Below the pieces are notes generated by a model, which saw only the letters and a program-made list of their open reading frames with translations, was not told where the DNA came from and made no database searches. From Daphnia carinata (lineage: Eukaryota), in contig NC_081331.1 of the NCBI RefSeq assembly GCF_022539665.2, positions 11,346,001 through 11,410,000 of the forward strand: 64,000 nucleotides of DNA, given 5' to 3'. A program made the translations under genes and the position numbers. Below are positions 39,323 through 42,300 of this stretch, in pieces. Position 1 is the first letter of the stretch. The number at the start of each line of letters is the position of its first letter.

Positions 39323-42300
39323 ATGGAAGATACACTTCAGGTATGTTTTTTCCTTGTAACTACGAATATTAATGGTTCCTTGTTTCTTGCCATACCTTGA
39401 GAAATATCATGGCAATTAGCTTCAGCATTTTGTTAGCGTCCTTCGTGTCATTCGTTGTACCAGGAGAGTCATATCTCCTCTAGATGTAGGGTCCACTCTG
39501 AGGTTGATATTGTTATATTGTTATCTATTACCTTGGCGAAAAATCTTCAAAATTTATCTTGAGACTCGAACGCCACGTGGCGTCCATCTTGCCAAAATTA
39601 AAGTCCATGTCATGGAACCGATCTTAACCTCAAAATACTGTTTTTGGCAGGAACTGGAATTCCTGGACTTCAGTGACCTACCAGAAAATGAAGTTCAAAA
39701 TTTGAAAAGCTTTATTATTGGGCCGACCAAACAAGATGAGCAGAAAGATAATCTTTCATCAGTCTCTGAGCAGCACCCATGTGAAGGTACGACAATACAT
39801 TCCTGCACATATTTGGCAGTTTTTACATTTCTTTGCACTTGTTTAGGATGTGTGGGGTCTGGGAATTACCCAGATATGGAGTCAGCTGAACATGTTCCGG
39901 TAGTTTTTTCAGCTCCAAACCCAGTTCATTCTATGTACCAGCAGAATGTTTGCATCACATCAATACCCCAATATCAACCAATCATGAGTTATCCAATGCA
40001 GATAATGCCAGGGGGTCACCTTGTTGCTTCAAGTCCTAACTACTATGTTGGTAACATTCACAGTCCTCCTATTCCTCATCCTGCGTCATTTAGTCCACCC
40101 CATCGGATTTTGAACTCCCAGCTTCTGACGTACCCGAAAAGGAAAAATGTTCGCGTGAAATATTCACCACGGAAAGATATTGTAAATGGACATGCCGGTG
40201 ATGTCTATTCTAATATGGTCTACCAACCGCCCGTATCGTATATGGGACCGTGTTTCACGGGCGATGTTGTACAGGCTGTTACCGGAGTGCCGATTGTTAT
40301 GCATCAGTCCGTGCCGTCATACGTACCACCTCACGGCGTCCAAGTCACAGCAGCTAATTCTCCTCAGCTATATCCAGTGGTAAACTATCCGCCGACAGAA
40401 ACTACCCTTTCGCTGGATTTCTTCGTTCCGGCCGTTAACGAAGCAACCGAAGAGATTCTTGCTGTTAATCCTACCCCAGTTCTAGCACCACTAGCGACTG
40501 TTTCTCAGGTAGAAGCAGTCGAAGAAAAGAAAACGAAAATTTTAACACCATCAGAGGTACCTGCATCTCCAGTTGAAGCGATTTCACTTGCAGAAGATAA
40601 ACCGTTAAATGCTGATCCTTCCGAAGCTAAATCATGGGCTAGCTTGTTCAAGAAGGATGCCCCAGTTCCTGTGAACTCCGGGGAAAAACCAACTGCACGA
40701 GTTGGGCCATTCACGCCGTCTGGCGTTGTAACGCCGGAAATGGCAAGCGTTGTGTCTCGGCCAACGGTTGATGTAAGAACTCGTCGCACTGCAGAGCATC
40801 TAGCCAGCTACGAATTGGTAATGGTGCCAGTGGCATTGCTCCCAAGAGGTCTCATCAATAAGAGCAATTGGTGTTACATAAATGCAACCTTGCAAGCCTT
40901 GATTGCTTGTGCACCTTTCGTTCATCTGGTGAAGTCGCTGGAGCGTTTCACAGGAGGTAAAAAGGAAGAGTCCACGACACCAATAATGGATAGCGTGTAA
41001 GTTATTCTACTTTAAAGTGATTTATTTCCCTATGATGAATTAGAGTTAGCTGTCTGGCTTACGACAATCCCGCAAATGTGGATAACATACGGAGTACTGC
41101 CTTACTCGTTTAAATCCTCGGGAAGGTCTGAGAAAAAGCTAGTCTCTTAAATGTAGAGATTATGTTCTAGACGGACAACCTTCTTGTGAAGGTGCAGAGG
41201 AATAGAAAGATATCGATTGGAGGTTACTTGCCCACGATGCCTCTTTGGTTAGGCGTTTTACTTCCAAGTACGATTGGAACCGCCTCTGTGGCTTGCTTTT
41301 TGAGTATAATTTGCGGGATGTGGTATGCATTATTTTGTTACTACAAAACTCAATTCAGACTAATCTGTCGAAAGCCGCACATACTGCTCTAGCATTCTGA
41401 GGGTTTTTCATACGAATCCCCAGAAATATTGTTTGTTCTAGTTTGGTAAGAAATTTCTCATCGATCTTTCATTTTTAGAATCGACTTCGTTGATCAGTTT
41501 GAAGTTATTCCTGTCCGAACTGGCAAAGAACGGGCATCTGCCAAAAAAGAGGAGCCGCGTTTTGGAACAAGTTTCGAGCCCTGTTCTGTATACAAAATGC
41601 TTTCAAAAATCCGAAGTGAAACTTTCAAAGTGGAAGGTCGCCAGGAAGATGCCGAAGAATTTTTGAGCTGTCTGCTTAATGGCTTGCACGATGAGATGAT
41701 CGATGTTGTGAAAGCCTCCAATCTTGCTGGAGATAAACCTCCCGTTCAGGTTGGAGCTAAATCAGATGCATTGGACGAGGAAGATTGGCAGGTAAAAGTG
41801 TTTTCTATTTCGTCATGGGTAGAAGTTAATCTCGTGTGATGAGCTTTATGGATTTCTGACACCTCTTCTGAGTTTATCTTTGAAGATTTCCTTTAACTGA
41901 AACTTGATATTTAGTTCTCTTTGTCGTTACATTTATAATTCCACATTAAGCCGTTCATTTTTTAATTAGATTATTGGCCCAAAGAACCGAGGATGTGTGA
42001 CGCACACGACCACTTTCAGCAAAACACCCGTATCGAACTTGTTTCTTGGTCAGATGCGATCGGCACTTTATTACGCAGGAGCACAGTCCACAGCAACTCT
42101 GCAACCGTTCTTCAGTTTGCAATTAGACATTCAGGTATTGCCTCGCGTTATCAAGAGTAAAAAAATAGTTCATTGAAAAGTCAGCTGCATGCTTGCATTC
42201 TGTCTTGTAGCGTTACTTCGATGACAAATTAATTGTTCATTTGGTATGGAGATGTTGGTGCCGTTCTGGTATCAACATTGGTACATCCCTATGGGCGTTT

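Follow-up and report, generated by a model that had tools for sequence, protein, structure and literature searches.

The 64-kb stretch of DNA analyzed here (the window) contains a coding exon (39849..40996, start approximate; this and all other window features are on the + strand) to which a USP10-like protein of Daphnia carinata is 100% identical. A GT..AG intron of 482 nt (40997..41478) separates this exon from a second USP10 coding exon (41479..41791), recognized by a UCH domain match and by RNA contigs of relatives. The join of the two exons gives an open USP frame, and 40997-41478 is skipped in RNA contigs of relatives. In the sense strand of this intron, as originally predicted, lies an RNase P RNA (RPR). 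The Rfam covariance model RF00009 matches 41057-41375 over model positions 1-301 with 124.2 bits (E 3e-35), against a gathering score of 28 bits, and this is the only match at gathering score in the window, which bears out the description of a full RPR. The core runs from P1 to P1 at 41056..41376, with P1 extended beyond the model match by the pair G41056-C41376, and is preceded by only 59 nt of intron. It includes CR-I, the 5' strand of P4 (41120..41133), in agreement with the RF00009 consensus, and CR-V, the 3' strand of P4 (41352..41362, from the RF00009 alignment); both the P4 helix formed by CR-I and CR-V and the P1 closing helix are present in the model alignment and predicted fold.

RPRs embedded in introns of Pol II genes are known from insects and crustaceans (PMC4287351; PMC6797745), and those described in the main text of PMC4287351 likewise lie in the sense strand of a Pol II gene, with several copies in Daphnia. 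Judged from its sequence, the window locus is a member of the nuclear RNase P RNA family and, being in sense orientation inside an intron of a Pol II gene, of this intronic RPR class. The internal T5 run that had been cited against Pol III transcription is present at 41297..41301, and runs of at least four T occur inside seven of the eight complete RPR cores considered here. Because of the internal T5 and the intronic position, we judge Pol III transcription to be unlikely. D. pulex has ten RPR-like genes, and the window copy therefore need not be the working RPR. A second T5 (41404-41408), directly after the terminal stem described below, looks like a Pol III terminator and is not kept at that position in other loci.

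The sequence flanking the core was read by the standard box C/D consensus and k-turn rules. Box C (ATGATGA, 41032..41038) lies near the predicted 5' end and box D (CTGA, 41397..41400) near the predicted 3' end, in the arrangement of a C/D terminal motif and at the positions originally given. Outside the boxes, CCC (41028..41030) and GGG (41401..41403, the predicted mature 3' end) form a terminal stem with pair probabilities of 0.98-1.0, the pairs being C-G in all six sequences aligned. Inside them, the 5' linker (41039..41055) would, from the fold and the comparison of linkers, extend stem II into P1, and the 3' linker (41377..41396) stands at the position of a D guide but is paired and unconserved. 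The irregular stem said to continue outward from P1 holds up as five base pairs (41041-41045/41387-41391) with pair probabilities of 0.96-1.0. In box C/D register, the window motif has three outer C-G pairs, a 3-nt bulge (41031-41033), tandem G-A positions, U.U, G-C and A-U, that is, the register of a predicted k-turn with its terminal stem. Box D is 78 nt from the 3' splice site, a distance that recomputation left unchanged. Scored alone, the window's linker duplex (-8.3 kcal/mol) is not above shuffles, 19% of 1000 being as low, and besides the RPR, the window intron has no snoRNA family match in Rfam at E up to 10.

The frequency of such an arrangement by chance was estimated with a rule demanding box C at most 30 nt before and box D at most 30 nt after a 320-nt core, together with an outer stem of at least 3 bp. 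The rule was passed by 0 of 126,501 window positions (52 passed for the boxes alone) and by 10 of 999,834 in a Markov null for which 738 nt of USP10 introns served as training sequence, or about 1e-5 per locus. As the rule was written after seeing the window locus, it is the other loci that constitute a fair test.

Related loci were collected from metagenome contigs with a single exact 20-nt CR-V pattern, which favours arthropod-type RPRs, and the resulting sample of nine loci contains no Pol III-type RPR. Eight of the nine are RPRs, seven of them complete and one (L008) cut at its 5' end; the remaining locus (L005) had no RPR match and was dropped. Relaxed CR-V scans yielded a further 28 genome-contig and 8 viral-contig loci, with a CR-I-like site in 0/36, and these were dropped as chance.

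The full cap, comprising both boxes and the outer stem, was found in five of the seven complete metagenome RPR loci (L009, L001, L002, L003, and L004, with L001 and L002 97% alike and counted as one), and the box C consensus is matched in six of the seven. The k-turn register of the five capped loci is the same as that of the window (3-nt bulge, tandem G-A, U.U, G-C, A-U, and three to four C-G). Four capped loci are of Daphnia type and occupy two kinds of host gene. One of these, L009, comes from another daphniid, in which it occupies the orthologous USP10 intron (exon 67% to D. pulicaria). The others, L001-L003, along with the truncated L008, have Daphnia-type cores in a different host without recognisable coding frame; the complete L001-L003 cores are 73-79% alike to those of the window and L009, and in L008, box D is followed by four G. 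The fifth capped locus, L004, lies in a USP gene that is 97% like the USP of the attine ant Acromyrmex and unrelated to the USP10 host. Its core is only 54% alike to the window core, yet CCC, box C, box D, and GGG are all shared, set on linkers of 7/8 nt as compared with 18-21/21-26 nt in the others. This host resembles the USP43-type host known in Hymenoptera, which the main text of PMC4287351 reports for Nasonia. The boxes are thus kept in the daphniid orthologue, as expected for related species from the original prediction, and also beyond cladocerans, in the ant. The CCC/GGG stem shared by ant and Daphnia suggests common descent, with convergence possible for a feature seen in two lineages only; the independent lineages sampled are daphniids, one ant, and one unplaced locus.

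That unplaced locus (L006) has both boxes further out, at 62 and 65 nt, placed symmetrically across a long linker duplex and without an outer stem, a layout (boxes alone within 70 nt) reached by 1,639 of 999,834 Markov-null positions. The intron that hosts it comes shortly after the stop codon of a BTF3-like gene, and its box D stands 70 nt before the acceptor. L007, from an ATP synthase c intron of a dipteran, has neither box C nor box D beside the RPR, and by eye, no box C is present upstream of the RPR in the D. virilis intron given in PMC6797745 (Table S4). Both dipteran introns examined are without the cap, which is thus not universal. That it is dispensable in flies (L007, D. virilis), where RNase P proteins protect the ends (PMC6797745), weighs against the end-protection reading preferred below. 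Its absence in flies and its imperfect form in L006 are also what would be expected if the boxes matched by chance, or were left over neutrally from a snoRNA that the RPR once entered. We nonetheless consider this highly improbable, given the low per-locus chance estimated above, the presence of the same boxes in the ant, and their invariance where the adjacent intron is down to about 50% identity.

Two further features of these divergent loci were observed. The RPR of L006 (361-918) is GC-rich, its P1 is much extended, and a perfect TACTAAC resembling a branch point closely follows box D; BTF3 is absent from the host genes named in the covered part of the intronic-RPR literature. In L007 (347-631, - strand), an approximately 19-bp flanking stem is kept around P1, possibly as a remnant or replacement of the cap.

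Between the window and L009, the boxes and the outer stem are invariant, and the two linkers (10/21 and 10/19 columns shared) are conserved no better than the remaining intron (19/34 and 43/83). Pairing of the linkers persists despite this divergence: the linker duplexes of five loci beat shuffles (0 of 1000 as low for L009, 0 for L001, 3 for L003, 8 for L002, and 0 for L006), although in L004, the duplex alone was matched by 19% of shuffles, as in the window. The L007 duplex also beats shuffles, and a flanking stem is therefore not special to capped loci. RNAalifold recovered the outer stem in 6/6 sequences and detected no covariation in the cap, where pairs are invariant and linkers are out of register.

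The introns that follow in the window hold snoRNA-like sequences. A SNORD60-like box C/D snoRNA (41824..41905; E 0.008, below gathering score) lies in the next USP10 intron and is 79% conserved between the window and L009, with an invariant guide, and a SNORA74-like H/ACA snoRNA (42169..42358; E 1.6e-7, below gathering score), likewise present in L009, lies one intron further on. The ant USP host has a scaRNA-like match in an intron other than that of the RPR (L004 3885-4017, - strand; PsiU2-38.40.42, E 1e-5; SCARNA15). Given these neighbours, the RPR occupies a snoRNA-type slot. Box D is 70-80 nt from the acceptor in the window, L003, L006, L008, and L009, closer in L001/L002 (55 nt), and farther in the ant (about 118 nt). 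Box C/D-like pairs were seen by eye in successive introns of L002 (1-780), as well as upstream of the RPR in L001/L003; Rfam support for the presumed L002 snoRNAs is weak (E 0.6 or more). The host of L001-L003 is apparently a non-coding, multi-intron snoRNA host gene with the capped RPR in one intron.

Complete boxes in a typical intron position would also be found in a genuine snoRNA-RPR chimera that continued to direct 2'-O-methylation via the stretch before box D. Comparison of the orthologues revealed no conserved unpaired guide of 10-21 nt in that stretch: it is paired, 10 of its 19 columns are shared as against the invariant guide of the SNORD60-like RNA, and in the ant it measures only 8 nt. 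A search for internal C'/D' boxes found no motif, C'-like or otherwise, common to the eight cores, the one shared internal CTGA being a strand of P4. A live guide is accordingly the possibility to which we attach almost no weight. Because the slot before box D is unconserved and paired, in contrast to the invariant guide of the SNORD60-like RNA, the motif has the look of an end-cap rather than of a guide, and the C/D motif of the RPR likely carries no methylation guide. If the RPR did arise by insertion into an ancestral snoRNA, as had been suggested, no guide of that snoRNA is left.

The terminal k-turn might alternatively be a dock for an L7Ae-family protein inside the RNase P holoenzyme, with no part played by Nop56/58 or fibrillarin. 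K-turns are present in many P and MRP RNAs and have been proposed as Rpp38/Pop3 sites, and Rpp38 was not found in insects, both of which could favour such a dock, but in the covered part of the same source, the known k-turns of P/MRP RNAs are always in P12 (PMC1636426). Moreover, capped RPRs keep box C (7 nt) and box D (4 nt) in their entirety and sit in snoRNA slots of snoRNA hosts. A plain k-turn needs less than a full 7-nt box C and 4-nt box D. We therefore regard docking of this kind as improbable.

RNA data consisted of contigs of four runs from close relatives, and contigs cannot show RNA ends; in none of 24 runs does the share of the window's words exceed 0.10. That contigs are missing over the SNORD60- and SNORA74-like introns carries no evidential weight. 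The RPR contig of each of the four runs begins 10-15 nt upstream of P1, at 41040-41045, which an RNA bounded by the linker stem would explain just as well. At the 3' side, an X6 contig of depth 25 has Illumina adapter directly after 41401, 1 nt past box D, and in a second X6 RPR, adapter begins 2 nt beyond a sequence that resembles box D but for one mismatch. In X2, two loose ends show other RPR 3' ends, in which CTGA follows P1 by about 15-25 nt. Contrary ends were also present, with an X6 adapter junction at 41371, an X7 contig that stops at 41379, and an X1 contig that runs about 25 nt past box D. Taken together, the contigs give a weak hint that C/D-ended RPR molecules exist.

The ends at 41371 and 41379 would suit a C/D motif that acts on the precursor only, with the cap later cut off and the working RNA ending at P1, as the Drosophila RPR does (uppercase span, Table S4 of PMC6797745). 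Against this stand the adapters located just after box D in two different X6 RPRs, as well as the description of bound C/D proteins as stopping exonucleases (PMC5519232), and we consider a transient cap unlikely, while giving it some weight.

The C/D-bracketed RPR is a real, conserved feature that is not a guide snoRNA and, we infer, behaves like a box C/D-capped RNA. Rather than being discarded with the precursor, a C/D motif devoid of a guide likely recruits snoRNP proteins to fix the RPR ends, giving a mature RNA from about 41028 to about 41403, or about 375 nt. Transcription by Pol II within the USP10 pre-mRNA, as suggested by the position, the T5 run, and the known insect and crustacean pattern, would be followed by splicing, which is seen in contigs, and by debranching. 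P1 and the linker stem are predicted from folding to bring box C and box D together, whereupon, as box C/D biology suggests, Snu13/15.5K, Nop56/58, and fibrillarin would load on the k-turn during splicing. Xrn2 and the exosome would then trim up to the cap and be halted by the bound C/D proteins, and RNase P proteins would assemble on the core of the ~375-nt RNA. Precedents for such a mechanism are given in PMC5519232, the review of intronic snoRNAs, and in PMC5175330 and PMC7038934. The cap would thus serve biogenesis and stability rather than 2'-O-methylation. Trimming by Rat1/Xrn2 and the exosome is expected for known intronic RPRs and the window RPR alike (PMC4287351; PMC6797745). In the known case, however, RNase P proteins (Pop1, Pop4, Rpp20, and Rpp25) protect the RNA ends, as described for the fly in PMC6797745 with Drosophila alone tested, whereas a C/D cap is predicted to do so in the window RPR. 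The end protection by the snoRNP pathway that had originally been proposed is thus supported by geometry, host genes, and the weak hint from RNA ends, with binding itself predicted.

Borrowing of a snoRNA motif is seen in composite C/D-H/ACA scaRNAs such as U85, with a motif or cargo other than that of the window RPR, and engineered U3-hammerhead "snorbozymes" place a snoRNA motif on a ribozyme artificially. In vertebrate telomerase RNA, the borrowed snoRNA motif is an H/ACA domain, which serves stability or location, again with another motif and cargo (PMC7038934). The nearest architecture is that of trypanosome telomerase RNA, a Pol II-made RNA of a catalytic RNP, the terminal helix of which forms a box C/D bound by Nop58 and Snu13; as described in PMC5175330, it differs in being neither intronic nor itself a ribozyme, and in its unrelated sequence and lineage. 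Sno-lncRNAs, SPAs, and the snoRD86 cSPA are likewise intron-derived and shielded from exonucleases by terminal snoRNP assembly, but they have a complete snoRNA at each or the 5' end, as opposed to one C/D motif split around its cargo in the window, and in the covered part of PMC7038934, they lack both enzymatic function and conservation from human to mouse. The window RPR was considered as a sno-lncRNA and rejected, there being no complete snoRNA at either end and flanks of 17-20 nt being too short. Intronic box C/D guide snoRNAs (PMC5519232) resemble the window RPR in boxes, k-turn register, terminal stem, intron position, and host genes; the window RPR differs from them in its length of about 375 nt, its lack of a conserved guide or C'/D', and an interior that is a full RPR. 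C/D boxes at the RPR are unmentioned in the main texts of PMC4287351 and PMC6797745, where "box" refers to TATA, plots, and references only; S2 Fig of PMC4287351, outside the main-text scope, gives the sequence on either side of 29 RPRs from insects and crustaceans and bears on how widespread the boxes are and on whether they had been marked. Our literature search, the scope of which excluded subscription papers and theses, found no earlier report of a C/D-capped RPR.

If true, capping would explain how a Pol III RNA with finished ends survived the move into a degradable intron. It would also answer why the RPR moved non-randomly among host genes. Both questions were left by the discoverers of intronic RPR, who, according to the main text of PMC4287351, found no signature at insertion sites. 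The Drosophila biogenesis model would then fail for many arthropods, annotated RPR ends in such genomes would be ~25 nt short per side, and a snoRNP-capped ribozyme would exist in nature. A variant of the arrangement was observed in one X2 contig of a close relative, which begins within the 5' linker, spans the RPR and box D, and joins 41042-41417 to the next exon at 41480 as if a donor lay ~17 nt after box D, with a short side of 28 nt. This resembles the arrangement of the snoRD86 cSPA in NOP56 described in PMC7038934.
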